DNA of 64,000 bases from Thalassobaculaceae bacterium (GCA_965228875.1 OZ245843.1:3764616-3828615), one strand, 5' to 3'; shown: positions 8,272-45,871, counted from the first letter of the stretch. Program-made: numbers and translations. The notes: generated by a model from the letters alone, not told the origin.

Positions 8272-9498
8272 TCAGGCTTTCGGAACCAGGGGATCGTCGT
8301 CCCCCTCCTCATCATCGTCGAAATCCCACCGCATGTCGGTGGGGTCGTCATCGGTCGCGGTCTCTCCGTCATCCGGCGCGACGAAATCCCGCGAGGGCGC
8401 GTCCTCGGGAAGCGGGTCGAAACCGTCCCCATCGCCGTTCCTGTCACCGCCGATCGGGTCGCCCTCACCATCCAGGTCGATCGTCGACGGCAGCTCCGCG
8501 TCGCGGACCGTGTCCTCCTCCTGGATCGTCTGATAGTTCGACCACGCACCCTCGCGCGCCGGTGGTTCGGTTCCGTCCTCGGTATCCGGCACCAGGTAGG
8601 CGTCGGGCCGATGGTCCGCATGGGCGGAAAGGCGCTCCACGATCAGGTCGAGCTGATCGAGATTCTGGTAGCGCAAGGTCACGCTACCGGCACCGGATGT
8701 TGCGTTATGGCTGATCGCTACCACGAGCCCTGTCCGGTCCGACAGGTCCTGCTCCAGGATCCGGGTATCCGCGTCCTTCTGCTTCTCCGCTTTCGGCGCC
8801 GGCGGCGGAGACTTCTCGCGCTGGACCAGACGCTCGGTGTCCCGGACGTTGAGCTTACGGGTGACGACGTCCCGGGCCAGCGCCGACGGGTCCTCCGCGG
8901 AGAGCAGGGCGCGGGCGTGGCCGGCGGTGAGCTGGCCGTCCTCGAGCAGAACCCGGACCTCGTCCGGCAGGTTGAGCAGGCGCAGAATATTGGCGATATG
9001 GCTGCGGCTCTTGCCGACGGCGCGGGCGATGTCGTCCTGGGAGTGGCCGTACTCGTCGATCAGCCGGCGGTAGCCCTCGGCCTCCTCCAGCGGCGTGAGA
9101 TCGCGGCGCTGAACGTTCTCGACCAGGGCGATCTCCATCGCCGTCTGGTCGTCGAACTCGCGGACGAGAACCGGAACCTCGTGCAGCTGTGCCAGCTGGG
9201 CCGCCCGCCAGCGCCGCTCGCCGGCGATGATCTGGTAGGTGTCGCCGTCCGGCGCCCGGCGCACCAGGATCGGCTGGATCACCCCCTGCTCGCGGACGCT
9301 CTCGGCGAGTTCCCGCAGATCGTCCTGATCGAACCGCCGCCGCGGCTGAAACGGGCCCGGCGTCAGCTGCTCCACCGGCAGGGCCCGGGACTGACGCAGG
9401 CGCTCGAGCTGGACCTGCTCGTCGTCATCCTCGCCGAGCAGCGCGGACAGGCCGCGACCCAGCTTGTTGCTGCGGCGTTTGCCGGTTTCTTCGCTCAT
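8272..9498 (-). CDS. parB: Chromosome partitioning protein ParB with acidic C-terminal extension
   Basis: LGRGLSALL, QPRRRF, IIAGERRWRAA, ENVQRRDL, HTH. Confidence 0.96.
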   Translation of the reverse strand: MSEETGKRRSNKLGRGLSALLGEDDDEQVQLERLRQSRALPVEQLTPGPFQPRRRFDQDDLRELAESVREQGVIQPILVRRAPDGDTYQIIAGERRWRAAQLAQLHEVPVLVREFDDQTAMEIALVENVQRRDLTPLEEAEGYRRLIDEYGHSQDDIARAVGKSRSHIANILRLLNLPDEVRVLLEDGQLTAGHARALLSAEDPSALARDVVTRKLNVRDTERLVQREKSPPPAPKAEKQKDADTRILEQDLSDRTGLVVAISHNATSGAGSVTLRYQNLDQLDLIVERLSAHADHRPDAYLVPDTEDGTEPPAREGAWSNYQTIQEEDTVRDAELPSTIDLDGEGDPIGGDRNGDGDGFDPLPEDAPSRDFVAPDDGETATDDDPTDMRWDFDDDEEGDDDPLVPKA

Positions 9499-9527
9499 GT
9501 CACCTCAGGCCGGCCGGTCGCCCGCTT

Positions 9528-10355
9528 CTATGCCGCCACCGCGCCCGCCGCCAGGGCGGATTCGCGGGCCAGCACCTCGCGGGCCAGAGAGATATACGCC
9601 TTCGATCCGCTGCACGCCATGTCGTAGACGATCACCGGTTTGCCGTAGGACGGCGCCTCGGAGACCCGGACATTGCGTGGGATCATGGTTCCGTAGACCA
9701 CGTCGCCGAAATAGTCGCGCACGTCCGCCGCCACCTGGTCGGACAGGTTGTTGCGGCGGTCGTACATGGTGAGCACCACGCCCTGGATCTCCAGGCCGGG
9801 GTTCAGCGCCTTGCGCACCCGCTCGACCGTGCGGACCAGCTGCGAGAGACCCTCAAGCGCGTAGAACTCGCACTGCAGCGGGACCAGCACGGCATCGGCG
9901 GCGACCAGGGCGTTCAGGGTCAGCAGGCCGAGCGACGGCGGACAGTCGATCAGGATGTAGTCGTAGGGCGACGTGGCCGCGTGGCGCACCACCGCCTCCC
10001 GCAGCCGGAACTCCCGGTGGTCCATGTCCACCAGTTCGATCTCCGCACCGGAGAGGTCGGTCGAGGCCGGAACCACCTCGAGACCGGGAACCGGTGTGTC
10101 GATCGCCGCCTCGGCGATCGTCGCCTCGCCGATCAGCACCGCGTAGGAATCCGCCTCGCGCGCCTTTCGCGGGACGCCGAAACCGGTCGACGCATTGCCC
10201 TGGGGGTCCAGGTCGATGACCAGGACCTTCTTGCGGCAGGCCGCCATGGCGGTGGCCAGGTTGACCGCCGTCGTCGTCTTTCCGACCCCGCCCTTCTGGT
10301 TCACGATCGCCAGGATCCGCGGTGCCACTACCTGGTTGGTCTGTCCGTCAAGCAC
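9528..10355 (-). CDS. parA: Chromosome partitioning ATPase ParA
   Basis: NQKGGVGKTTT, DLDPQGNAS, IDCPPSLG. Confidence 0.97.
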   Translation of the reverse strand: MLDGQTNQVVAPRILAIVNQKGGVGKTTTAVNLATAMAACRKKVLVIDLDPQGNASTGFGVPRKAREADSYAVLIGEATIAEAAIDTPVPGLEVVPASTDLSGAEIELVDMDHREFRLREAVVRHAATSPYDYILIDCPPSLGLLTLNALVAADAVLVPLQCEFYALEGLSQLVRTVERVRKALNPGLEIQGVVLTMYDRRNNLSDQVAADVRDYFGDVVYGTMIPRNVRVSEAPSYGKPVIVYDMACSGSKAYISLAREVLARESALAAGAVAA

Positions 10356-10953
10356 GGCTCACCTCCTCCAGCCTCAGCACGACCCCCCGAGAGTCAGAAA
10401 TGCTGGGAGCCTTGGTGACAGCGATTTTCCAGGTGTTTCGTGCGGTAGTCAACTCGGCGTCCGCCTGCTCCCCCTTAAGAAACAGAAAGACCGTGTTTCC
10501 GTCGACGTATGGCTCCGCGTAGCGCAGGAGCTTGTCGACGGGTGCCAGGGCCCGTGCCGTGACAATACCGGCGCGAATCGGGCGTAGTGATTCGATTCGG
10601 CAGGCTTCGATACCCGGTTTTACCCCGGTCACCCGCGCCACTTCCTGAAGAAAGGCGACCTTCCGACGGTCGGATTCGACCAGAGTGATGTCCGTCCGGC
10701 CGAGAATGGACAGAACCATGCCCGGAAACCCGGCGCCGGACCCCAGATCCAGAACCGGGCCGGGAACACCCTCCATATGGCTGAGGAGTTGAGCCGAATC
10801 GAGAATATGGCGGCTCCACAGCTCCGGCAGGGTCGCCGGAGCCACGAGATTGATCCGCGACTGCCATTTTCGAAGGAGATCCGCATAGGATTCGAGGGCG
10901 CGGCGGCAATCGTCGCTCAGAGACAGCCGAGATTGGACGTCGTCGGGGGTCAC
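10348..10953 (-). CDS. rsmG: 16S rRNA m7G527 methyltransferase
   Basis: [28 protein letters not shown] start overlaps the mnmG stop. Confidence 0.95.
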
Positions 10954-12806
10954 GCCGCTGACTTTTTCACGTGACGCAGCAACGCGACCGTCGCCGCCGG
11001 CGTCATTCCCGGCAAACGGCTGGCCTGACCGAGCGTGCGGGGCTTCTCCCGGGACAGAAGTGCCCGAATTTCCGCCGAGAGCGATCCGATCGAGGACGGA
11101 TCCAGGTCCTCCGGCAAGGTCAGACCCTCGTCGCGGCGATACGCGCGGATATCCGCTTCCTGTCGGGCGAGATAACCGGCGTACCGGGCCTCCGTCGCGA
11201 TCTGCTCCGCCACCGCGATCGGGATTTCCGAGAGCTCCTCTGGCCACGCCGCCGTCAGTCGCTCCCAGGTCACGTCCGGATAGGCCAGAAGATCGAGGGC
11301 GGAGCGTCGCTGACCGTCCTGATTCACCGAGAACCCGAGCCGGGCAAGCGCCTGGGGCGATCCTCCGAGCCGCATCAGTGTTTCACGTGAAACATCCAGC
11401 GCCCGCTTGCGGGCCGCGAAGGCACCCGCCCGCGCACCCCCGACGAGGCCCAACCGCTCTCCAAGGGGGGTCAGCCGCAGATCCGCATTATCCGCCCGCA
11501 ACCGCAGCCGGTACTCGGCCCGGGAGGTAAACATACGGTAGGGCTCAGGCGCGCCACGAGACACAAGATCATCGATCATGACCCCGATATACCCGTCTGC
11601 TCGGTCTATATATAGTGTGTCATACGAACCGCCCGACGCCAGAGTAGCGTTGGTAGCAGCCACCAGCCCTTGAGCTCCTGCCTCCTCGTATCCCGTCGTG
11701 CCATTGATCTGGCCGGCCAGATAGAGGCCTGGCAGGGCCCGAACCTCGAGACTTGACGACAGCGCCCGCGGGTCCACGTAGTCGTACTCGATGGCGTATC
11801 CGTATTGCCGGATCACCGCGCGTTCCAGCCCCGGGATCGAGGCGACGATGCGATCCTGGACGTCCCGCGGCATCGACGTCGAAATGCCGTTCGGATACAC
11901 GGTCGGGTCGTCCAGCCCTTCGGGTTCAAGAAAGATCTGGTGGCTGGCCTTGTCGGCGAAGCGGACGATCTTGTCCTCGATCGACGGACAGTACCGGGGC
12001 CCCGAGCTTCCGATCTGCCCGCTGTACATCGGAGAGCGGGCGAGGTTCTCGCGGATCGCCTCATGAGTCGCCGCAGTCGTATAGGTGATGTGGCAGGGCA
12101 GCTGCGGCACCGTGATCCGGTCGGTCAGGGTCGAGAACGGCTCCGGCGGATCGTCGCCCGGCTGCACCTCCAGACGCGACCAGTCGATCGTGCGCCCGTC
12201 GAGACGCGGCGGCGTGCCGGTCTTCAACCGCCCGAGCGGCAGACCAAGTCGTTCAAGGGTCCGCGCGAGTCCCACCGCCGGCGCGTCCCCCACCCGACCG
12301 GCGGGCTTGCGCTCCTCGCCGAGATGGATTTCGCCGCGCAGGAACGTGCCGGTGGTCAGCACCACCGCCCCCGCGGTCAACGTCCGGCCATCCGCCAGGA
12401 CAACGCCGGCGCACCGGCCATCGACGATCCGCAGGTCCTCGACCCCGGCTTCCACGATCGACAGGGTCTCGTATTCCGCCAGCAGGTCCTGCATCGCGGC
12501 CCGATACAGGGCGCGGTCGGCCTGGGCGCGCGGGCCCCGCACCGCCGGTCCCTTGGAGCGGTTCAGAACCCGGAACTGGATGCCGGAGCGGTCGATCGCC
12601 CGTCCCATGATTCCGTCGAGGGCGTCGATCTCGCGTACCAGATGGCCCTTGCCGAGACCGCCGATCGCCGGATTGCAGGACATCACGCCGATGGTGTCCC
12701 GCCGGTGCGTCACCAGGGCCGTGCGCGCGCCGAGGCGGGCGGCCGCCGCCGCCGCTTCCGAACCGGCGTGGCCGCCGCCGACAACGATGATATCGAAGGA
12801 GGTCAT
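10950..12806 (-). CDS. mnmG: tRNA U34 carboxymethylaminomethyl modification enzyme MnmG (GidA)
   Basis: [44 protein letters not shown]. Confidence 0.98.
11379..11394. promoter_or_regulatory. parS site (inside mnmG)
   Basis: TGTTTCACGTGAAACA, perfect consensus palindrome. Confidence 0.93.
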
Positions 12807-12856
12807 GGTCTTGAGATACGCAGGGCGGCCGCCCCTGTCAAAGACTCCGCGCGCCC

Positions 12857-12872
12857 TGTTTCACGTGAAACG
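12857..12872. promoter_or_regulatory. parS site (mnmG-mnmE intergenic)
   Basis: TGTTTCACGTGAAACG. Confidence 0.92.
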
Positions 12873-12888
12873 GGCCCGCGCCGACCGG

Positions 12889-14223
12889 TTACTTGCCAAG
12901 ACAGAACTCGGCGAACAGCCGGTCCAGGATTTCCTCCACATCCACGCGCCCCAGGATACGGCCGAGCTGTCCGGCCGCGGCGCGCAGGTCCTCCGCGGCG
13001 ATCTCCAGCGGATCGCCCGCGTCCAGCGCGGTCCGGCATCGCCGTACCGCCTCGTGCGACTTGGCGACAGCCTCGCGGTGACGCGCGCGGGTCAGTGCGA
13101 CCTCGCCCACGCGATCCATCCGCGCCGCGACGGCGGCCGACAGGCTCCGCAGAAGATCCGGTAGGCCGTCGCCCGACCGGACCGACACGCCGAGCCAGGG
13201 CGACGGGATTTCGCCACCCACGACGTCGGTCTTGGTGGCGATCGCCAGACTGTCCGGTCCGAGAAGGTGCGCCACAGCCCGGCGCCCGGCGTCGCCCGAC
13301 TGCGCGTCGGCCAGAACCAGGGTCAGGTCGGCCGCCTCGGCCCGCTCGAGGGCCCGGCGCACGCCTTCCGCCTCGACCGTGTCATCGGTCTCCCGCAATC
13401 CGGCCGTATCCGCCACAGTGGCCGCGTAACCGTCGATATCCAGGTGAACCTCAAGCACGTCGCGGGTCGTGCCGGCAGTTGCACTGACAATCGCTACTTC
13501 CCTTTGTGCCAACCAGTTAAGGAGAGAAGACTTACCCGCGTTCGGCACTCCCACAAGCGCGATCCGCACGCCGTCGCGAACCCGCTCCGCCCGCCGGCCG
13601 TCGGTCAGTGCCGCCGCCATTTCCGCGGCCAGGCCATCGAGATCTCCGCAGATCCGCGCCAGAAGATCCTCGGGCAGATCTTCGTCGGGGAAGTCGATGA
13701 AAGCCTCGAGCTGTGCCATCGCTCCGACCAGCCGGCCACGCCATCCTTCAAGCGCGGCTTCCAGCACCCCGGTCGCCTGGCGGGCGGCCTGTCGGCGCTG
13801 GGACTCGGTCTCCGCGTCGACCAGATCGAGAATGCCTTCCGCCCGTGTCAGGTCGATTCTGTCGTTCAGATAGGCCCGCCGGGTGAACTCCCCCGGATCG
13901 GCCAGACGCAACCCGTCCATGCGCGCCAGGCGGTCGCTGATCGCCGCGACGACGGCCCGTCCGCCATGGAGGTGCAGTTCGACCACGTCCTCGCCGGTGG
14001 CGCTCGCGGGCCCCGGAAAGGCCGCCACCATGGCGTCGTCCAGCACCTCGCCATCGCCCGGGTCTCGCAGAATCCTGCGGGACAGGCGGCGTGGTTCCGG
14101 CACATCCCCGGCAAGCCGGATCAGCGCCTCGAACGCCCCCGGTCCGGAAATCCGGACGATCGCCACGGCGCCCCGCCCCGGTGCGGTCGCCGGCGCGAAG
14201 ATGGTATCCACCGCCGCTGTCAT
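12889..14223 (-). CDS. mnmE: tRNA modification GTPase MnmE (TrmE)
   Basis: DTIFAPAT, GVPNAGKSSL, GTTRDVLE, DTAGLR, C-terminal FCLGK. Confidence 0.97.
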   Translation of the reverse strand: MTAAVDTIFAPATAPGRGAVAIVRISGPGAFEALIRLAGDVPEPRRLSRRILRDPGDGEVLDDAMVAAFPGPASATGEDVVELHLHGGRAVVAAISDRLARMDGLRLADPGEFTRRAYLNDRIDLTRAEGILDLVDAETESQRRQAARQATGVLEAALEGWRGRLVGAMAQLEAFIDFPDEDLPEDLLARICGDLDGLAAEMAAALTDGRRAERVRDGVRIALVGVPNAGKSSLLNWLAQREVAIVSATAGTTRDVLEVHLDIDGYAATVADTAGLRETDDTVEAEGVRRALERAEAADLTLVLADAQSGDAGRRAVAHLLGPDSLAIATKTDVVGGEIPSPWLGVSVRSGDGLPDLLRSLSAAVAARMDRVGEVALTRARHREAVAKSHEAVRRCRTALDAGDPLEIAAEDLRAAAGQLGRILGRVDVEEILDRLFAEFCLGK

Positions 14224-39507: not shown

Positions 39508-39586
39508 TTCGTTCAAAACCGTCGCCCCGCCTTCCATAGGCCTCGTGGCACATAACCGGGTGTGCCGTCGCGAGGGAGGAGCGGGG

Positions 39587-40509
39587 ATGGCGGCGCGGGT
39601 GACGACGGTGGCCTTTCGCGGAATCGAGACGGTGGAGGTCGACGTGCAGGTGCATGTCGGCGGTGGCGGCTGGCCGGGGGTCGCGCTTGTCGGTCTTGCC
39701 GACAAGGCGGTGACGGAATCCCGCGAACGGGTGGTCGCCGCCCTGCACGCCCTGGGCCTGGCCCTGCCCCACAAGCGGATCACCGTGAACCTGGCGCCGG
39801 CCGACCTGCCGAAGGAGGGCGGGCATTTCGACCTGCCGGTGGCGCTCGGCATTCTGGTGGCGATGGGGGCGCTGTCGGTCGAGGACGTGGCCGACCGCAT
39901 CGTGCTCGGCGAGCTGGCGCTGGACGGCCGGATCTCGCCGGTGGCCGGCGTGCTGCCGGCGGCGGTGGCGGCGTCGGGCAGCGGTCGGCGCGGCGTGATC
40001 TGTCCGGCGGCTTGCGGATCGGAGGCGCGCTGGGCCGACGGCATCGAGGTGGTCGCCGCCCCGGACCTGCTCTCCCTGCTGAACCACCTGCGTGGCGTCC
40101 AGGTCCTGCCGCCGGCCGCCGAGGGCGTGGTCGAGGCCGAGCCGCGCTACCCCGACCTGCGCGACGTGAAGGGGCAGGAGACGGCGAAACGGGCGCTGGA
40201 AGTGGTGGCGGCGGGAAGCCACAACCTGCTCATGGTCGGCCCGCCGGGGGCCGGCAAGTCGATGATGGCCGCGCGCCTTCCCGGCCTGCTGCCGCCGCTC
40301 ACTCCGGCGGAAGCGCTTGAGGTCTCCATGATCCGCTCGGTCGCCGGGGTCCTGAAGGAGGGGCGGATCGAGCGCGGGCGGCCGTTCCGCGATCCGCATC
40401 ATTCCAGCTCCGCCCCGGCGCTGATCGGCGGCGGCATCCGCGCCAGGCCGGGGGAGGTGTCCCTGGCGCACCGTGGCGTGCTGTTTCTGGACGAACTCGC
40501 CGAGTTCCC
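39587..40509 (+). pseudogene. comM: comM (YifB Mg-chelatase-like ATPase), 5' part, interrupted by transposon
   Basis: [42 protein letters not shown]; the frame stops inside the IS left end. Confidence 0.93.
40502..40509. repeat. Target-site duplication, left copy (GAGTTCCC)
   Basis: Identical 8-mer at 44104-44111. Confidence 0.95.
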
Positions 40510-40609
40510 CGGTATTAGGTAGCAAATGCACCTAGCTCGGAGACTGGTTCTCACCCTCATTGCTGGGATGCTGTTCGCTGCGCTAGCGGGTGGGGAGGCG
40601 AGGGCGTCG

Positions 40610-41482
40610 TCAGCATTCGTCGTTGTGCCTGTTGGGGAACTCAAACGGGACATCGGTAACAGCGTTCTTGGCTGCTTCGACATGCCCCCCCTTCAGGTTG
40701 AAGGACCAGCAAGCGCGAGTTCGATGTTTGTCTCCGAAGACATCTTCGTAGGTCATGACGCAAAACACGTAGACCCGTTCTTGGATCAGCGCCATGCGGT
40801 GAGCGTCCCCCACGCCGTCAAAGTCCGCGAAGATAGCTTGGGTGGAAAAGCTAGCTCCAGAGGAGATCGTGTTCTTTGCTTCACGAAAATCCGGTTCTGG
40901 CAGTTTCTCTCCGTCGGGCAGCGGATAAGGGAAGGCTTCGGACACCGCCGAAAATCGGCAGTTTTTGGCAGGCGTTTGACCCTTATTGGACTGAACGACG
41001 TAGAGCAGCAGGCGTTGGTTTGGCATATCGAAGAGCACACCGCCTGGAGCCAAGGAAATGTAGGCTCGAAGTTCAGTCTTAGCGTTGTTGCTGGTGATTC
41101 GGTTGGCTTCGACGGCGGCATTCGTCGCCCTAACGGTGAGGAAAATCACGACCGCCAACGCCGCGATTTCCAGTATCGTCAGGCGGACTTGATACTTAGT
41201 CCACTGAGCCTGGGTTTTGGCCGCTTCGGCCATTTGCCGTTGCTCGCAGAGATCGGCCTCATCAGTGTTCTTGGGGTTCTCGCATTCTGGCCGATAGCCG
41301 CTGCTCTCACTCCGGGGCGCGTCGCCCGTAACCGGGTTGAGCGCCAAAAGCGTATAGCCTTGGTTTGCTTCGGGCTGATGATGTTCGTTGTTAGCTTGGC
41401 GGTTATCGGTCTCTTGGGCTAGGACACCCGTCGTTAGGCATCCCCCAAGTGCAATGATGAGCAACCAATAGCGACCAGACAT
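40610..41482 (-). CDS. Hypothetical membrane protein (signal peptide plus one TM), IS passenger
   Basis: N-terminal hydrophobic stretch, Cys pair, TM LTILEIAALAVVIFLTV, ELRAYIS then a beta-rich domain. Confidence 0.7.
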   Translation of the reverse strand: MSGRYWLLIIALGGCLTTGVLAQETDNRQANNEHHQPEANQGYTLLALNPVTGDAPRSESSGYRPECENPKNTDEADLCEQRQMAEAAKTQAQWTKYQVRLTILEIAALAVVIFLTVRATNAAVEANRITSNNAKTELRAYISLAPGGVLFDMPNQRLLLYVVQSNKGQTPAKNCRFSAVSEAFPYPLPDGEKLPEPDFREAKNTISSGASFSTQAIFADFDGVGDAHRMALIQERVYVFCVMTYEDVFGDKHRTRACWSFNLKGGHVEAAKNAVTDVPFEFPNRHNDEC

Positions 41483-41664
41483 TGCAGCATGAAAGCAGCG
41501 GTGAATTTTCCGCGCGATAGTTTATTGCGGATGTTCACCTCTTTTTCGGCAACGCCGATCTCGGCCAGTCGCTCAACCAGGCCTGCGTAAGTTACGCCAC
41601 GGCGCTTAAGTTCTGCCTTCAGGAGGTTGGCGGCTCGGGATTCCCAATCGGTTTTCTCGACCAT
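41434..41664 (-). CDS. Small XRE-like HTH protein (DUF6471-like)
   Basis: LLKAELKRRGVTYAGL..NIRNKLSRGKFTAAFMLQCL; divergent from the transposase. Confidence 0.8.
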   Translation of the reverse strand: MVEKTDWESRAANLLKAELKRRGVTYAGLVERLAEIGVAEKEVNIRNKLSRGKFTAAFMLQCLVAIGCSSLHLGDA

Positions 41665-41737
41665 CGTATCGCCTACAGTGAAAAAAGTACTGTAGACGTT
41701 ACATATGCCCTTGAACCCGATACGTCAACGTACCATA

Positions 41738-41757
41738 TCCGTTACATAGGTAACGGA
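41738..41757. promoter_or_regulatory. Palindromic operator candidate between HTH gene and transposase
   Basis: TCCGTTAC-ATAG-GTAACGGA; half-site CGTTACATA repeated at 41697. Confidence 0.6.
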
Positions 41758-41768
41758 GACAGTACGAA

Positions 41769-42722
41769 ATGGCCCAACACTTCCTTCTCAGCGCGAAAGC
41801 CCGGACCCTCTCGGTGGTCCAGGTGGCGCGTATGTCGGAAGACGAGGCGCGTGCACTGTTCCGTGCCATCCGTTGGGCCGACACTGACGGCGAGCCGGTT
41901 TGCCCGCGCTGCGGCTGCTTTGCGGTCAACGAGTACAAGTCCCGCCCGATCTTCAAGTGCAAGGGCTGCGGCCATCAGTTCTCGATCACCTCGGGCACGA
42001 TCTTTGCCAGCCGGAAACTGCCGGTGCGCGATATCCTGTTGGCGATCGCTCTGTTCGTGAACGGCGCCAAGGGCATGTCCGCTCTGCAAATGAGCCGGAA
42101 CTTGGACGTTCAGTACAAGTCGGCCTACGTGCTGCTGCACAAGATCCGCGAAGTGATGGCCGCTGAGACCGCCGACGCCACGCTGTCTGGCGAGGTCGAG
42201 GTTGATGGTGCCTACTTCGGTGGTCACGTCCGTCCGGAGAACCGCAAGGAAGACCGCAAGGACCGTCGTCTGAAAGAGAACCAGACCGGCAAGCGCCGTG
42301 TCGTCGTCGTCATGCGCGAGCGTGGCGGGCGGACCCTGCCGTTCGTGTTCCGCAGCGAAGACCAGTCAGTCGGCACCATCCGCGCCCGTGTCGCCAGCGG
42401 GACCACCGTCTACGCTGACGAGGCGTCGGGCTGGGATGAACTGCACGCCGCTTACGAGACCAAGCGCATCAACCACAGCATCGCCTTCGAAGACGACGGC
42501 GCCTGCACCAATCAGGCGGAAAGCTACTTCTCCCGCCTGCGCCGTGCCGAGTGGGGCCAGCACCACCACATCAGCGGGCGCCACCTGCACGCCTACGCCG
42601 CCGAAATGGCGTGGCGCGAGGATCATCGCCGCGTGCCGAACGGCACGCTGTTCACCGCCGTTGTGGACGCCGCGCTGAACGCCCCGGTTTCGCGGCAGTG
42701 GAAGGGGTATTGGCAGCGGTAA
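41769..42722 (+). CDS. IS1595-family DDE transposase
   Basis: Zn ribbon CPRC..CKGC, HTH, EVEVDGAYFGG, VYADE, TNQAESYFSRLRR. Confidence 0.95.
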   Translation: MAQHFLLSAKARTLSVVQVARMSEDEARALFRAIRWADTDGEPVCPRCGCFAVNEYKSRPIFKCKGCGHQFSITSGTIFASRKLPVRDILLAIALFVNGAKGMSALQMSRNLDVQYKSAYVLLHKIREVMAAETADATLSGEVEVDGAYFGGHVRPENRKEDRKDRRLKENQTGKRRVVVVMRERGGRTLPFVFRSEDQSVGTIRARVASGTTVYADEASGWDELHAAYETKRINHSIAFEDDGACTNQAESYFSRLRRAEWGQHHHISGRHLHAYAAEMAWREDHRRVPNGTLFTAVVDAALNAPVSRQWKGYWQR

Positions 42723-42804
42723 TCGCTCGACTCGCCAAAACCTGCCGATTCGCCACGCACATTAAAATGTTGACGCTTGCGATATGATCACTAATTTAAA
42801 GCCA

Positions 42805-42911
42805 TGACACCCCATCAGTCTCCGCCCGGTAGACGGGTTAAACGGATGGCTGATTATTAAGACCCCAGGGACGCCTATGGCGTCCCTGTATTCTTTGAAG
42901 GGGGGCACAAA
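42805..42911 (+). ncRNA. Candidate structured leader/ncRNA upstream of NYN gene
   Basis: Promoter-like TTGACG-N16-TAATTT (42770-42797); interrupted long hairpin 42814-42854; perfect 10-bp hairpin 42866-42888. Confidence 0.45.
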
Positions 42912-43544
42912 ATGGCCCAAGCGCCGCAAGTCTCTCAGCCAAGTGCGCCAAAAATTCGGTTGTTTGTCGATTTTTGGAACTATGAGCTTGCCATGAAGCG
43001 ATCCGCCTCAGGCTTTCAGACAGACTGGAAAAAGATCGGGCCGCATCTAGCAAGCGTGGCAGCGCAAATGATTGGAGCATCTGGGCAGATTAATTACCAG
43101 GGTATGAATGTTTATGGTTCTTACAACACAAAAACAGGAAACGACCAGCCATTGAAAAAATGGGCAACGACAGTTTTAGACACATTCCCAGGCGTTCATG
43201 TGACATTTATTGAGCGGCAAAAGAAAAAAAGCCCACCTTCTTGCCCTGCCTGCCATGACGCTGTCGAAAACTGTCCGTCTTGTGGAGTCGATATGCGCGG
43301 CACTGAAGAAAAAGGTGTCGACACTCGGATGGTCACAGACATGATGAGTCTAGCCTGGGCCAATAATTATGATGTAGCTGTATTACTATCTTCCGATAAA
43401 GATTTTGTGCCAGTCGCAGAGTTTTTGCAGACGCGTGGCATCAAAGTTATTCACGGTGCATTTCCACCAAATGGTGCTGTTTTAAGTCAAAAGTGCTGGG
43501 CGAGCATAGATGTTCCGGGAGAGCGGAGTAATTTCCAACGCTAA
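42912..43544 (+). CDS. NYN (LabA/DUF88, PIN-like) RNase with Zn-ribbon insert
   Basis: FVDFWN, EKGVDTRMVTDM, LLSSDKDFVP; CPAC..CPSC insert; low GC. Confidence 0.9.
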   Translation: MAQAPQVSQPSAPKIRLFVDFWNYELAMKRSASGFQTDWKKIGPHLASVAAQMIGASGQINYQGMNVYGSYNTKTGNDQPLKKWATTVLDTFPGVHVTFIERQKKKSPPSCPACHDAVENCPSCGVDMRGTEEKGVDTRMVTDMMSLAWANNYDVAVLLSSDKDFVPVAEFLQTRGIKVIHGAFPPNGAVLSQKCWASIDVPGERSNFQR

Positions 43545-43600
43545 TTTAGGCTTTCTCCACCTAATCGCTGTCCAAGCCAACGCCTGACCGCATCGAGCGC

Positions 43601-44035
43601 CTACCCCGCCACCCACTGCTTATACGTCCCCTCGCTGGGAACCTCGCGGGCTAGCCCCTTCTCGACCAGCCGATACAGGCACGCGCCGACGCGCTTGCGG
43701 ATCAGCGAGACAGCGCGTGCGTCGTTCGGGTCCAGCCCACGGCCCTTGACCACCTCGACCGCCATCTCCAGCGTCGTCAGCGGCTCCGAGGCGTTCCGGA
43801 GTGCTCCGAGTACAAACCGCTGCATCTCGCCCCTGTAGGCGCCGTGGCGGGCTGGGAACTGCTTGGGCTTGGTCAGCGATACGTCGAGGTCCGGGGCGAA
43901 CATGTGGATGCAGTGGTCTACGTGGTCCAGGTCGATGACCAGGTCGTTCAATTGCTGCTGTAGGTGCTCGATCCGGCCGGATATCTCGCGGCGCTTCTCG
44001 ATCAGTCCCGCGACTGTGTTGGGTCTGTCTGACAT
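43601..44035 (-). CDS. Hypothetical coiled-coil plus winged-helix-like protein
   Basis: N-terminal heptads (LIEKRREISGRIEHLQQQL); C-terminal VLGALRNASEPLTTLEMA..VGACLYRLVEKGL..W pattern. Confidence 0.75.
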   Translation of the reverse strand: MSDRPNTVAGLIEKRREISGRIEHLQQQLNDLVIDLDHVDHCIHMFAPDLDVSLTKPKQFPARHGAYRGEMQRFVLGALRNASEPLTTLEMAVEVVKGRGLDPNDARAVSLIRKRVGACLYRLVEKGLAREVPSEGTYKQWVAG

Positions 44036-44103
44036 GCCCCAAGGATACGAAACCGGCGGGACTCTGCCGATATGGGGCTAGGTGCATTTGCTACCTAATA
44101 CCG

Positions 44104-44712
44104 GAGTTCCCGCGTCCGGTCCTCGACGCGCTGCGCCAGCCGATCGAGACCGGCCAGGCGGTCATCGCGCGGGCCAACCATCACGTCACCTATCCGGCCC
44201 GCTTCCAGATGGTGGCGGCGATGAATCCCTGCCGCTGCGGCCATATGGCCGATCCCGCCCGCGCCTGTTCCCGCGCGCCGCGCTGCGGCGCCGACTACCA
44301 GAATCGGCTCTCCGGCCCGCTACTCGACCGTTTTGATCTGGCAATAGAGGTGCAGGCGGTCTCGGCGGCGGACCTGTCGCTGCCGCCGCCGGCCGAGGGC
44401 AGCGCCGAGGTCGCCGCCCGGGTCGCCGCCGCCAGGGCCCTGCAGACCGAGCGGTACCGGACGCTGGATCCGACCGGCGCGGTGCGCACCAACGCCGATG
44501 CCGATGGCGAGCTGCTGACCGCCGTCGCCGAACCGGACGAGCCGGGTCGCGCCCTGATGCGCCGGGCGGCGGAGAAGCTGCAGCTCTCCGCCCGCGGCTA
44601 CCACCGCGTCCTCAAGGTCGCCCGCACCCTGGCCGATCTCGACCGGGCCGAGACGGTGGGACGGGTGCACGTGGCCGAGGCGCTAGCCTATCGGGGGAAT
44701 GGGGGTGGGTGA
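44104..44712 (+). pseudogene. comM: comM, 3' part (begins with right TSD copy)
   Basis: EFPRPVLDALRQPIETG, AAMNPCRCG, SGPLLDRFD, LSARGYHRVLKVARTLADL; rejoining gives an intact 507-aa ORF. Confidence 0.93.
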
Positions 44713-44985
44713 GCCGCACGTATGTTTTCCATCCCGGATCCAAAAGCTGGCGGACCTTGCAGGCACGATGCTGTATACAGCAGTGTCGCGATCTGGAAGA
44801 GAACAGTAGCAATGCAGCTATTTCGCGCTTGCCCGTTGACGTCGCCTATACCGCGAATTACGTTGACGCATACAGCGAATCGGCACCAAACCTAGGATCT
44901 TAGGTAACCCAACATTAATTGTTGTACCCTAGAATCCCTTGAGCACAAGATATTGCGTCTTGGCACGCTCAACAGGGAGGTTCCG

Positions 44986-45246
44986 ATGTCGTCCCAAGCG
45001 ACGCGGAAAAGCAGGACCAGGGCCATGTTATCCAATTTGTCGACGAGGTCTAGCGAGTCCGACGATGTTGAAGCGACGGATGCTACAGCCATCTCTCGAC
45101 CGGAGCGCCGGCATTCTTGGATGGTCAGCGGTGTCACTCTGAGCGGCAAAGCTGTTCGTCACATCGACGAGCAAACTCGTTCTGCTGCTAAGCAAGCTGC
45201 AAAAAGAAAACTTCGGGAAATGGTCCGTCGCCGCGAAGCAGGTTGA
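44986..45246 (+). CDS. Hypothetical small basic protein (low GC)
   Basis: GGGAGG SD 5 nt before the ATG; 86 aa. Confidence 0.55.
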   Translation: MSSQATRKSRTRAMLSNLSTRSSESDDVEATDATAISRPERRHSWMVSGVTLSGKAVRHIDEQTRSAAKQAAKRKLREMVRRREAG

Positions 45247-45268
45247 CGAAAGTTTCGTGCACGAGTAA

Positions 45269-45850
45269 ATGCCAATTATGGCTCAATCTGACCGTGCACA
45301 AAGCCAAGAGGAACCTAGCGCAAATAGCGTGCCTGGCGTGCCCGGGCACGTGACGGATTTAGTGAATCGAGGCTTCCAGCGGATCGTCACTGATCCAGAA
45401 GATATAGAACAGCTAGTAGCCTATGGACTTTATAAAGCGGCTAAACACAAATGGGCTATTAACCAAAGCCCAAAGAAGGCTGAAGCAGATAACTATTATA
45501 AAAACGAACTTGCTAGCGAAGAAAAAATCGACTTGTACATGCAGCAAGCCAATCAAATGGTTTTAGCATATACTGACGAGCTAATTCGACGTGATATAAA
45601 GGAAATTATTACCGATTATCTTGAAGAAGAACATCTAGAAGATATCAAATCAGATTTAAGACAGGTGAAGACAAACTCTTCTCTGTTATGGAATGGCGCT
45701 GTTTCTTTAGGCACAAATATAGTTGCTTGGGCTTTAATTGTCGTACTTACTCTGATCATACTTGCGGGAATGGAGAACGGTATCAGCGTTCTCCCGACAG
45801 CCGCTAGTCAGAATGGCCAAGAACAAGTACCTGCCCCAGCAAAAGAATAA
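45269..45850 (+). CDS. Hypothetical protein with C-terminal TM (low GC)
   Basis: 193-aa ORF in AT-rich DNA; LVAYGLYK helix; TM IVAWALIVVLTLIILAG. Confidence 0.75.
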   Translation: MPIMAQSDRAQSQEEPSANSVPGVPGHVTDLVNRGFQRIVTDPEDIEQLVAYGLYKAAKHKWAINQSPKKAEADNYYKNELASEEKIDLYMQQANQMVLAYTDELIRRDIKEIITDYLEEEHLEDIKSDLRQVKTNSSLLWNGAVSLGTNIVAWALIVVLTLIILAGMENGISVLPTAASQNGQEQVPAPAKE

Positions 45851-45871
45851 TAAGCCCCACTAGCTTATACC

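Follow-up and report, generated by a model that had tools for sequence, protein, structure and literature searches.

The comM locus

A stretch of 64,000 nucleotides from a Thalassobaculaceae bacterium (GCA_965228875.1 OZ245843.1:3764616-3828615), referred to here as the window and numbered from its first letter, contains the gene comM, which encodes a YifB-type Mg-chelatase-like AAA+ ATPase. As read from the sequence, comM is split by a 3,594-bp insertion sequence (IS) of the IS1595 family. Near its right end the element carries a gene for a protein of 144 residues, orf144, and it is this protein, a candidate selector of the insertion site, that forms the main subject of what follows. The features of the interrupted gene and of the element's backbone are these:

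39545..40509, plus strand: 5' part of comM (YifB-type Mg-chelatase-like AAA+ ATPase), including the left copy of the duplication; Pfam ChlI 4e-38 and Mg_chelatase 9.4e-53, NCBIfam TIGR00368 2.7e-98
39587, plus strand: alternative ATG start of comM (Met-15, 14 codons inside the GTG-started frame)
40502..40509, no strand: target-site duplication, left copy, GAGTTCCC; codons Glu320-Phe321 plus 2 nt
40510..40536, plus strand: left terminal inverted repeat (TIR), 27 bp, beginning CGGTATT; 27/27 complementary to the right end
41434..41664, minus strand: DUF6471 protein, 76 aa; Pfam PF20075 6.6e-32; divergent from the transposase gene
41769..42722, plus strand: IS1595-family DDE transposase, 317 aa, intact; Zn_ribbon_IS1595 PF12760 1.9e-11, DDE_Tnp_IS1595 PF12762 8.5e-42, NCBIfam transpos_IS1595 NF033547 1.4e-44 (above cut-off)
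43601..44035, minus strand: orf144, 144 aa, backbone gene; no Pfam match at cut-off; begins 42 bp inside the right TIR
44077..44103, minus strand: right TIR, 27 bp; 27/27 complementary to the left end
44104..44111, no strand: target-site duplication, right copy, GAGTTCCC; direct repeat
44104..44712, plus strand: 3' part of comM; Pfam Mg_chelatase 4.4e-17 and Mg_chelatase_C 1.6e-29; in frame with the 5' part after excision in silico

The original prediction of perfect 27-bp TIRs and an 8-bp duplication is confirmed. All 27 bases are complementary between 40510-40536 and 44077-44103, and the direct repeat GAGTTCCC flanks the element on both sides (40502-40509 and 44104-44111). An automated repeat search extended the pair to 28 nt by one further base that overlaps the duplication; no other of the 25 longest inverted pairs, out of 203, reaches 100%. 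When the element and one copy of GAGTTCCC are excised, comM reads through as one uninterrupted frame of 521 aa (1,566 nt including the stop codon) from the GTG at 39545, or 1,524 nt when counted from the internal ATG at 39587, which is the length that had been predicted. In the translation, Walker A corresponds to residues 232-239 and the Walker B Asp-Glu pair to residues 316-317. The insertion had been placed at the Walker B motif; the duplication, codons Glu320-Phe321, does lie only three codons past Asp316-Glu317, but this is beside the motif and outside its core.

The transposase, with both its zinc ribbon and its DDE domain, the TIRs and the 8-bp duplication are those of the IS1595 family, and the genes between the ends bear out the description of the element as one that carries passengers. 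PF12762 is matched once in the whole genome, which makes this the only IS1595 transposase of the bacterium. The ends begin CGGTATT and so fit the predicted form CGGnnTT, which we take to be the consensus of the ISNha5 group. The element also has regulator-type genes of the kind found as ISNha5 passengers, namely DUF6471 and the winged-helix orf144, and it looks ISNha5-like. No Nitrobacter record was present among the plasmid matches or the 159 transposase-relative loci described below. The GC content of the element (46-66%, against 72-75% in comM) and the rarity of its terminal 27-mer in the genome indicate a foreign origin. Overall, the element appears to be an intact and recent insertion, and it is predicted to inactivate comM in this bacterium.

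Insertion sites of related elements

Relatives were gathered by a transposase search, taking the best 79 of 222 loci in species-representative genomes and the best 80 of 260 loci on metagenome contigs. Loci were picked by transposase similarity, the two sets may overlap, and related elements are not independent of one another. The terminal repeats were located by a fuzzy match to the 27-mer. Both ends were found in 59 of the 79 genome loci and a perfect 8-bp duplication in 45 of these 59; nearly all of the 59 have ends consisting of CGG, two variable bases and TT. The targets are distributed as follows, where the label 'other' mixes truly different targets with unseen ones:

Genome set, 79 loci: flank visible in 62; comM 27, GT2 glycosyltransferase 9, SLBB/Poly_export 2, other 24, no flank 17
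Metagenome set, 80 loci: flank visible in 64; comM 28, GT2 11, other 25, no flank 16 (SLBB/Poly_export not separately counted)

Over both sets, 55 of the 159 transposase relatives are inserted in comM. Junctions were mapped by placing the element-proximal end of each flank on the restored ComM protein. All 46 mappable junctions fall on two codon pairs and none elsewhere: 27 at codons 320/321, the site occupied in the window, and 19 at codons 256/257, in the PAEAL stretch after Walker A. Read in the orientation of comM, the duplications are GARTTY plus two bases at codon 320 and mostly GAGGCNCT at codon 256, and their sequences track each host's own codons. Both orientations of the element occur at both sites (12 forward and 11 reverse at codon 320, seven of each at codon 256).

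The named hosts of the comM insertions belong to the Rhodospirillales, Hyphomicrobiales and Sphingomonadales, with the Sphingomonadales loci at one exact comM position, mostly codon 256/257. Of two Pelagibius species, one has its insertion at codon 320 and the other at codon 256, while two Parvibaculum metagenome-assembled genomes (loci L031 and L040 of the survey) have the same comM site occupied in opposite orientations by elements with sister selectors. Removal in silico yields an open frame of 517 aa or more in 20 of the 22 genome-set comM loci with both ends; the other two are L034, which has a mismatched duplication, and L043, where a second element abuts the first. This second element (L043 ~9095-12925) is a decayed family member standing directly after the first's duplication, with its transposase gene broken into several pieces, and the two lie side by side at codon 320/321.

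The exactness of the sites, the two orientations, the diversity of the hosts and the open comM halves speak against chance, a single inherited event or selection for knock-outs alone, and point to repeated, recent insertion at fixed positions in comM. Site selectivity for a conserved comM motif, as originally predicted, is thereby supported: once flanks and duplications are tabulated, the same codons recur in different species from many genera and three orders, with the element in either orientation. The prediction has to be widened, however, as the family is not comM-specific and other lineages use other conserved sites.

Numbered on a reference GT2, the insertions in GT2 glycosyltransferase genes fall at codons 148/149, 163 and 171/172, with one further site in a distant paralogue that has an N-terminal MshEN domain (L039). 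The three mapped sites, within 24 codons, flank one conserved DNA stretch encoding GPTTKADCLN. With L028, L039, L049, L053-L056, L074, L083 and 11 metagenome loci, GT2 is the family's second hotspot. Two Belnapia species have a common site in an SLBB/Poly_export (polysaccharide-export) gene. In L037 (4638-4646), L051 (8637-8645) and L129 (3996-4004), the duplication abuts the 3' end of tRNA-Gln(CTG), and the right-end proteins of L037 and L129 are 82% identical. Further relatives lie in palindromic intergenic (REP-like) repeats. No DNA motif common to all target classes was seen by eye in the aligned sites.

The right-end gene follows the insertion site

An intact transposase and four extra genes had been predicted, and all are present, but two of the four, the DUF6471 gene and orf144, are family backbone and not cargo. 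The DUF6471 gene adjoins the transposase gene in 76 of the 79 genome-set loci. A minus-strand open reading frame (ORF) of at least 80 aa, homologous to orf144 and starting no more than 300 bp from the right end, is found in 55 of the 59 elements with both ends, and three of the remaining four still give a tblastn match to orf144.

Trees of the three backbone proteins were built with IQ-TREE in quick runs (LG+G4). On the same 53 elements the target label changes 23 times on the transposase tree and 23 times on the DUF6471 tree (52 rows), against 10 times on the orf144 tree, where the minimum possible is seven. Labels are scattered over the full transposase tree (27 changes over 79 rows), and close transposase pairs are found in different targets (L028/L031, L039/L040, L053/L084 and L022/L023). 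On the orf144 tree all 15 codon-320 elements form one clade (support in the SH-like approximate likelihood ratio test, SH-aLRT, 83), the GT2_149 and GT2_163 clades each have a support of 100, and GT2_171 groups with L080 at 99; the 12 codon-256 rows share a clade with three rows of different or unseen target. A tree holding the 15 codon-320 elements together, a group defined by insertion site and not by tree, is rejected by the transposase alignment (log-likelihood difference 638; approximately unbiased (AU) test, p-AU 1.6e-5). The insertion site follows orf144 and not the transposase or DUF6471 tree, which is new here. Module exchange between the transposase and the right-end gene is shown by these comparisons, in which orf144 co-varies with the site and the transposase does not.

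The association was also examined out of sample, in 43 metagenome loci with a right end and an adjacent ORF, 26 of which have a recognised target. The nearest labelled orf144 named the correct target in 24 of these 26 unseen loci, nine of them at 56-73% identity, and there were no cross-target errors. In the remaining two the nearest protein was that of L063, an unlabelled element on a short contig without flank that falls inside the codon-256 clade.

A nucleic-acid guide was considered as a separate candidate and rejected: over 48 elements, the longest exact word shared with the element's own 48-bp empty site averages 9.0 nt, against 9.1 nt for sites of other classes.

The orf144 protein

The AlphaFold2 model of orf144, computed from a 53-row alignment, has a mean predicted local distance difference test score (pLDDT) of 84.9. 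It consists of a long helix (residues 6-46), a linker and a winged helix (helices 70-81, 88-98 and 106-125; strands 129-132 and 140-143). In Foldseek searches the C-terminal ~75 residues align with the winged-helix DNA-binding domains of PerR, Fur, MarR, RosR, FoxO1 and Z-alpha. HARE-HTH gives weak Pfam matches in 15 of 53 orf144 members (best E 4.4e-4). A search of the ESM Atlas and of 5.8 billion proteins returned relatives that are all in 'hypothetical protein' clusters, with no common Pfam family. Prediction of a complex between the transposase and orf144 scored 0.01, where 0.32 is the mark, and this is counted neither for nor against binding. Taken with its co-variation with the site, the protein is a candidate for a swappable target-site selector.

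Related elements in the same genome and genus

Within the 4.96-Mb genome the terminal 27-mer, with up to five mismatches, occurs four times: at the two ends of the element and twice at a relic locus outside the window.

G000:C1:2558664-2561160 (L008 5665-8160): relic locus, a decayed composite of two family members; 27-mer matches, no transposase

The relic starts with the identical 27-bp repeat and the next 49 bp of the right end (76 bp identical to the window element), followed by a gene for a 143-aa orf144-type homologue and then a DUF3800 gene. Some 1.4 kb further on there is a second, left-type repeat in the same orientation (three mismatches), followed by a 301-aa homologue of the element's 290-aa gene (see below) and a truncated DUF6471 end. 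The relic adjoins a REP-like palindrome, with a formylglutamate amidohydrolase gene on one side and a DUF4440 gene on the other. No labelled selector is more than 32% identical to its 143-aa protein, and identity to the window orf144 is 28%; by eye, the protein resembles the right-end proteins of L010-L012. L010 and L011 are located in REP-like hairpins that share an arm of the GTCATCCCGG type, and the flank of L012 is masked.

A copy outside comM in the same genome had been named in advance as an argument against targeting. Such a copy does exist in the relic, but it is not counted against targeting, because its right-end gene differs and relatives with a similar right-end gene are likewise found in REP-like hairpins. 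The combination of the same 76-bp right end with a different orf144-type gene and a different target instead argues against specificity residing in the non-coding end.

Eight of ten genomes of the genus have a comM match. The gene is uninterrupted across the site in six of these eight, interrupted as in the window in G003, and carries a different element in G005. In G005 (L088 1728-15923) comM is interrupted a short distance upstream of Walker A by a 14.2-kb element of another type, and 12 codons (residues 220-231) are duplicated. The products of this element are a Cfr10I/Bse634I-type restriction enzyme, a C5 cytosine methylase, a large serine recombinase and a relaxase/RepB-primase protein, and it looks like an integrative mobilizable element. 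In six loci of the survey (L034, L097, L111, L116, L146 and L165) the upstream comM match begins only at residue 226-228, and four of them have short restored frames, which suggests a second, older disruption near the G005-type site. The window genome has homologues of ComEC and DprA, so that a DNA-uptake route that comM could serve exists.

A proposed mechanism and its alternatives

It is proposed that the element moves by DDE-catalysed cut-and-paste or copy-out with an 8-bp staggered cut, as would be expected from its family, and that the family inserts at a few exact nucleotide positions in highly conserved coding or RNA sequences. The position would be chosen by orf144, which may dimerise through its long helix; the dimer would bind conserved DNA beside the site and recruit or position the transposase there. 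Since the two element ends are identical, the transposition complex would be symmetric, and insertion could take place in either orientation. Recombination would swap selector genes between elements and so retarget a similar transposase backbone, and the window copy would carry a selector of the comM codon 320/321 class. That this IS1595 passenger element is steered by orf144 to exact conserved sites, here that of codon 320/321, is considered probable.

Several observations weigh against this. The protein matches no Pfam family at cut-off, the fold matches are weak (best Foldseek E 6.8e-3), and we infer DNA binding by orf144 and its contact with the transposase. The SH-aLRT support of only 83 for the codon-320 clade, in quick LG+G4 trees, weakens the case, as do the choice of loci by transposase similarity, the possible overlap of the sets and the non-independence of relatives. 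Nine of the 17 metagenome loci with other or unseen target have their nearest orf144 in a labelled class. Single loci also depart from the rule: the orf144 of L114 is 89% identical to a codon-320 selector, yet the element has a perfect duplication at a non-comM site; L158 has an orf144 that shares 88% identity with a GT2_149 selector, yet a GT2 gene was not recognised in its flanks; L029 and L102, whose elements are almost the same as that of L023 (comM codon 256), are inserted at other positions; and L051 occupies the tRNA-Gln site of L037 and L129 with a right-end ORF that is barely similar to theirs. The winged helix is not singled out, the tree of residues 1-62 having 13 label changes and that of residues 66-144 having 12, with identities within and between classes of 0.50/0.35 and 0.49/0.33, respectively; only positions 37 and 64 discriminate codon-320 from codon-256 selectors. 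The link between orf144 and the site could come in part from physical linkage, as orf144 adjoins the right flank, or from shared descent of insertion alleles. Finally, TnsD, as an example of the known protein selectors, directs insertion in a single orientation. Target preference is thus strong but not absolute, and selector similarity leaves some cases unexplained.

Targeting might still be encoded by the element with orf144 as a mere regulator, specificity lying in the transposase, for instance in its zinc ribbon, or in an RNA or DNA feature of the right arm. Winged-helix proteins are mostly transcription regulators, and the equal tracking of the site by the two halves of orf144 is what would be expected if the whole right arm were co-inherited. 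The parts seen of one review also term the ISNha5 passengers 'transcription regulators' (PMC11891212). This explanation is nevertheless unlikely, as the target is at odds with both the transposase tree and the DUF6471 tree (23 changes in each versus 10; AU p = 1.6e-5), the relic differs in its orf144-type gene and its target while sharing the 76-bp right end exactly, guide-like complementarity was not found, and elements of one target class differ widely in the cargo that separates orf144 from the transposase gene. If there were no targeting at all, each class could be one old insertion, inherited vertically or spread as a comM::IS allele, in which the transposase was later replaced. The grouping of elements by site on the orf144 tree would fit, and the window element and L009/L089, which share site, orientation and a 97%-identical transposase, could indeed be one event. 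Such descent is very improbable for the family, given both orientations within each class, the opposed sister selectors of the Parvibaculum loci, the Pelagibius species hit at codon 320 versus 256, the uninterrupted comM of six of eight congeners and duplications that follow host codons; open comM halves in 20 of 22 loci would be unexpected if the insertions predated three orders.

The least credible alternative is random or weakly biased insertion, with selection retaining knock-outs of comM or GT2. Disruption of comM by many unrelated mobile elements (PMC12378983, in the parts seen) and the serine-recombinase element in a congener's comM are in keeping with it, and GT2 and polysaccharide-export genes are plausible selected knock-outs. 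It explains neither why 46 of 46 junctions fall on two exact positions of a 1.5-kb gene nor the insertions immediately past the 3' end of tRNA-Gln, which disrupt no gene. A different question, and one compatible with orf144 as selector, is why comM should be a target. The Walker B region may serve as an extremely conserved, portable landing pad with loss of comM incidental, an idea that falls somewhat short of an even chance. The contrasting view, also put forward originally, that loss of comM would keep the element from being removed by transformation, is an existing hypothesis. The same argument has been made for the comM Walker B-targeting TnsF elements, in the parts seen of Faure et al. 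2023 (PMC10293859), and the same IS family uses other conserved anchors in tRNA-Gln and the GT2 motif. On the other side, and not decisively, all comM and GT2 sites are intragenic and disruptive, unlike attTn7, and the ComEC and DprA homologues are kept, so that an uptake route served by comM exists. Any benefit from the loss of comM is one that we infer.

Other genes of the element and its surroundings

Two further genes complete the element:

40610..41482, minus strand: 290-aa variable protein, predicted membrane-anchored; no family match; model with a long helix and a beta-sandwich
42912..43544, plus strand: NYN-domain (LabA-like) predicted nuclease, 210 aa; Pfam NYN 2.2e-15; GC 46-48%

The NYN protein is true cargo, with no tblastn match across the 79 genome-set loci. 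Against PADLOC it matches HEC-09 (1.3e-10) in part, over residues 117-188 (72 residues), and an NYN model at 3e-4; the partial HEC-09 match is the only support for the earlier idea that the cargo may be defence-like.

Pfam, NCBIfam and PADLOC gave no match for the 290-aa protein. It starts with a hydrophobic segment containing an LGGC motif, followed by a long helix (residues 73-138) and then a beta-sandwich (AlphaFold2 mean pLDDT 77.8), and Foldseek gives only weak matches to Ig-like or Kir C-terminal domains (TM-score no higher than 0.31). Relatives with 23-36% identity by tblastn occupy the same slot downstream of DUF6471 in 18 other loci, and in most elements (~35 loci) the slot directly downstream of DUF6471 holds a protein of roughly 280-340 aa, with a mean column identity of 16%. 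The N terminus of these proteins is hydrophobic or resembles a lipobox, and a long helix and a beta-sandwich come after it. The fast-evolving protein of this slot behaves like a semi-conserved module rather than free cargo.

About three quarters of the 119 cargo ORFs scanned (genome-set elements; 199 are listed over both sets) are without a Pfam family. Those identified include six Panacea-domain antitoxins, two Fic proteins, PemK, DUF3800, Cas2-like, Bro-N, Rap1a, ImmA-type peptidases and ParA-like ATPases. The cargo of the family is a mixed load of addiction and defence flavour and not a defined system.

The DUF6471 protein is probably a helix-turn-helix (HTH) regulator. The 104-bp spacer between its gene and that of the transposase contains a repeated CGTTACATA word and a partial inverted copy. 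At window positions 41684-41766 there is a 22-nt direct repeat, 77% identical, each copy ending in CGTTACATA, together with a 17-nt inverted repeat; these repeats are a candidate operator for the DUF6471 protein. A promoter and terminator scan of the element found one promoter-like site, against 1.2 expected.

Beyond the comM stop, window positions 44750-45870, before the glutathione synthetase gene, have a GC content of 41-54% and hold two ORFs (97 and 193 aa), neither of which matches Pfam; clear terminal repeats are absent. This stretch may be another foreign insert.

Comparison with known systems

Simple ISs are generally thought to choose their targets through weak preferences of the transposase, while exchangeable selectors are known from large Tn7-like transposons. 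Passenger-carrying IS1595 elements of the ISNha5 group were reportedly treated as 'transporter IS' by Siguier, Gagnevin and Chandler in 2009, with a characteristic size range and end consensus. The likeness of the window element to this group lies in a transposase with Zn-ribbon and DDE_Tnp_IS1595 domains, the 8-bp duplication, the CGG..TT ends and HTH-type regulator genes (compare PMC11891212, PMC8101967). The extra genes of ISNha5 are passengers in the account of the former, in the parts seen, whereas two of the extra genes here are conserved backbone and one of them tracks the insertion site (PMC11891212). A literature search conducted largely without subscription journals, the 2009 IS1595 paper among them, gave no paper connecting IS1595 or ISNha5 with comM, with insertion at specific sites or with a target selector. 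In the parts seen of a 2025 review (PMC12378983), comM is described as hit by 'various MGEs' (mobile genetic elements) in gamma-proteobacterial and other species, and an IS1595 element is not named among them.

The closest parallel is found in Tn6022, which is Tn7-like, and the Tsy elements, which, according to Faure et al. 2023 (Mol Cell; PMC10293859), insert at the Walker B region of comM by means of TnsF. There, as is proposed here, a dedicated element-encoded protein directs insertion at this region, modular selectors are exchanged between backbones, and the conservation of the anchor provides the rationale. Unlike these elements, the window element has no TnsA, TnsB, TnsC or tyrosine recombinase genes; it has one DDE transposase in 3.6 kb, and the family inserts in both orientations. 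TnsF is a tyrosine-recombinase-like selector, whereas the candidate selector here is a 144-aa winged-helix protein, and the two systems are likened by region and not by exact nucleotide position.

In Tn7, TnsD/TniQ directs insertion downstream of glmS at attTn7, which leaves the gene intact, takes place in a single orientation and needs TnsABC. As is proposed for orf144, a sequence-specific DNA binder there reads conserved coding sequence and insertion follows at a fixed offset. Insertion by the IS1595 element is, in contrast, intragenic and free in orientation: the orientation-specific insertion of Tn7-like elements is not seen, with 12 and 11 elements in the two directions at codon 320 and seven and seven at codon 256. 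None of the five element ORFs matched the TnsB, TnsC, TnsA, TniQ, TnsD or TnsF families in Pfam or NCBIfam.

Significance

On balance, although by a modest degree of belief, ISNha5-like IS1595 elements may be regarded as a minimal protein-guided, site-specific system made up of one DDE transposase and one selector of ~145 residues with a coiled coil and a winged helix. Such selectors would be naturally swapped among comM (two sites), GT2 (three offsets), the tRNA-Gln 3' end and REP-like hairpins, and this would be the simplest known modular targeting module of a DDE transposase and the third independent case of targeting to the comM Walker B region. If a protein of 144 residues retargets a single-transposase IS, selector-guided, site-specific transposition would have evolved in a much simpler system than the Tn7-like transposons. 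This would explain why 'passenger regulators' are conserved in ISNha5-like ISs, and would give a very compact natural scaffold on which DNA insertion could be studied and perhaps re-aimed. The element is also a third unrelated type of mobile element converging on the Walker B region of comM, and as such bears on whether the disabling of comM lets mobile elements avoid being cured by recombination, or whether the gene is to them only a conserved place to land.

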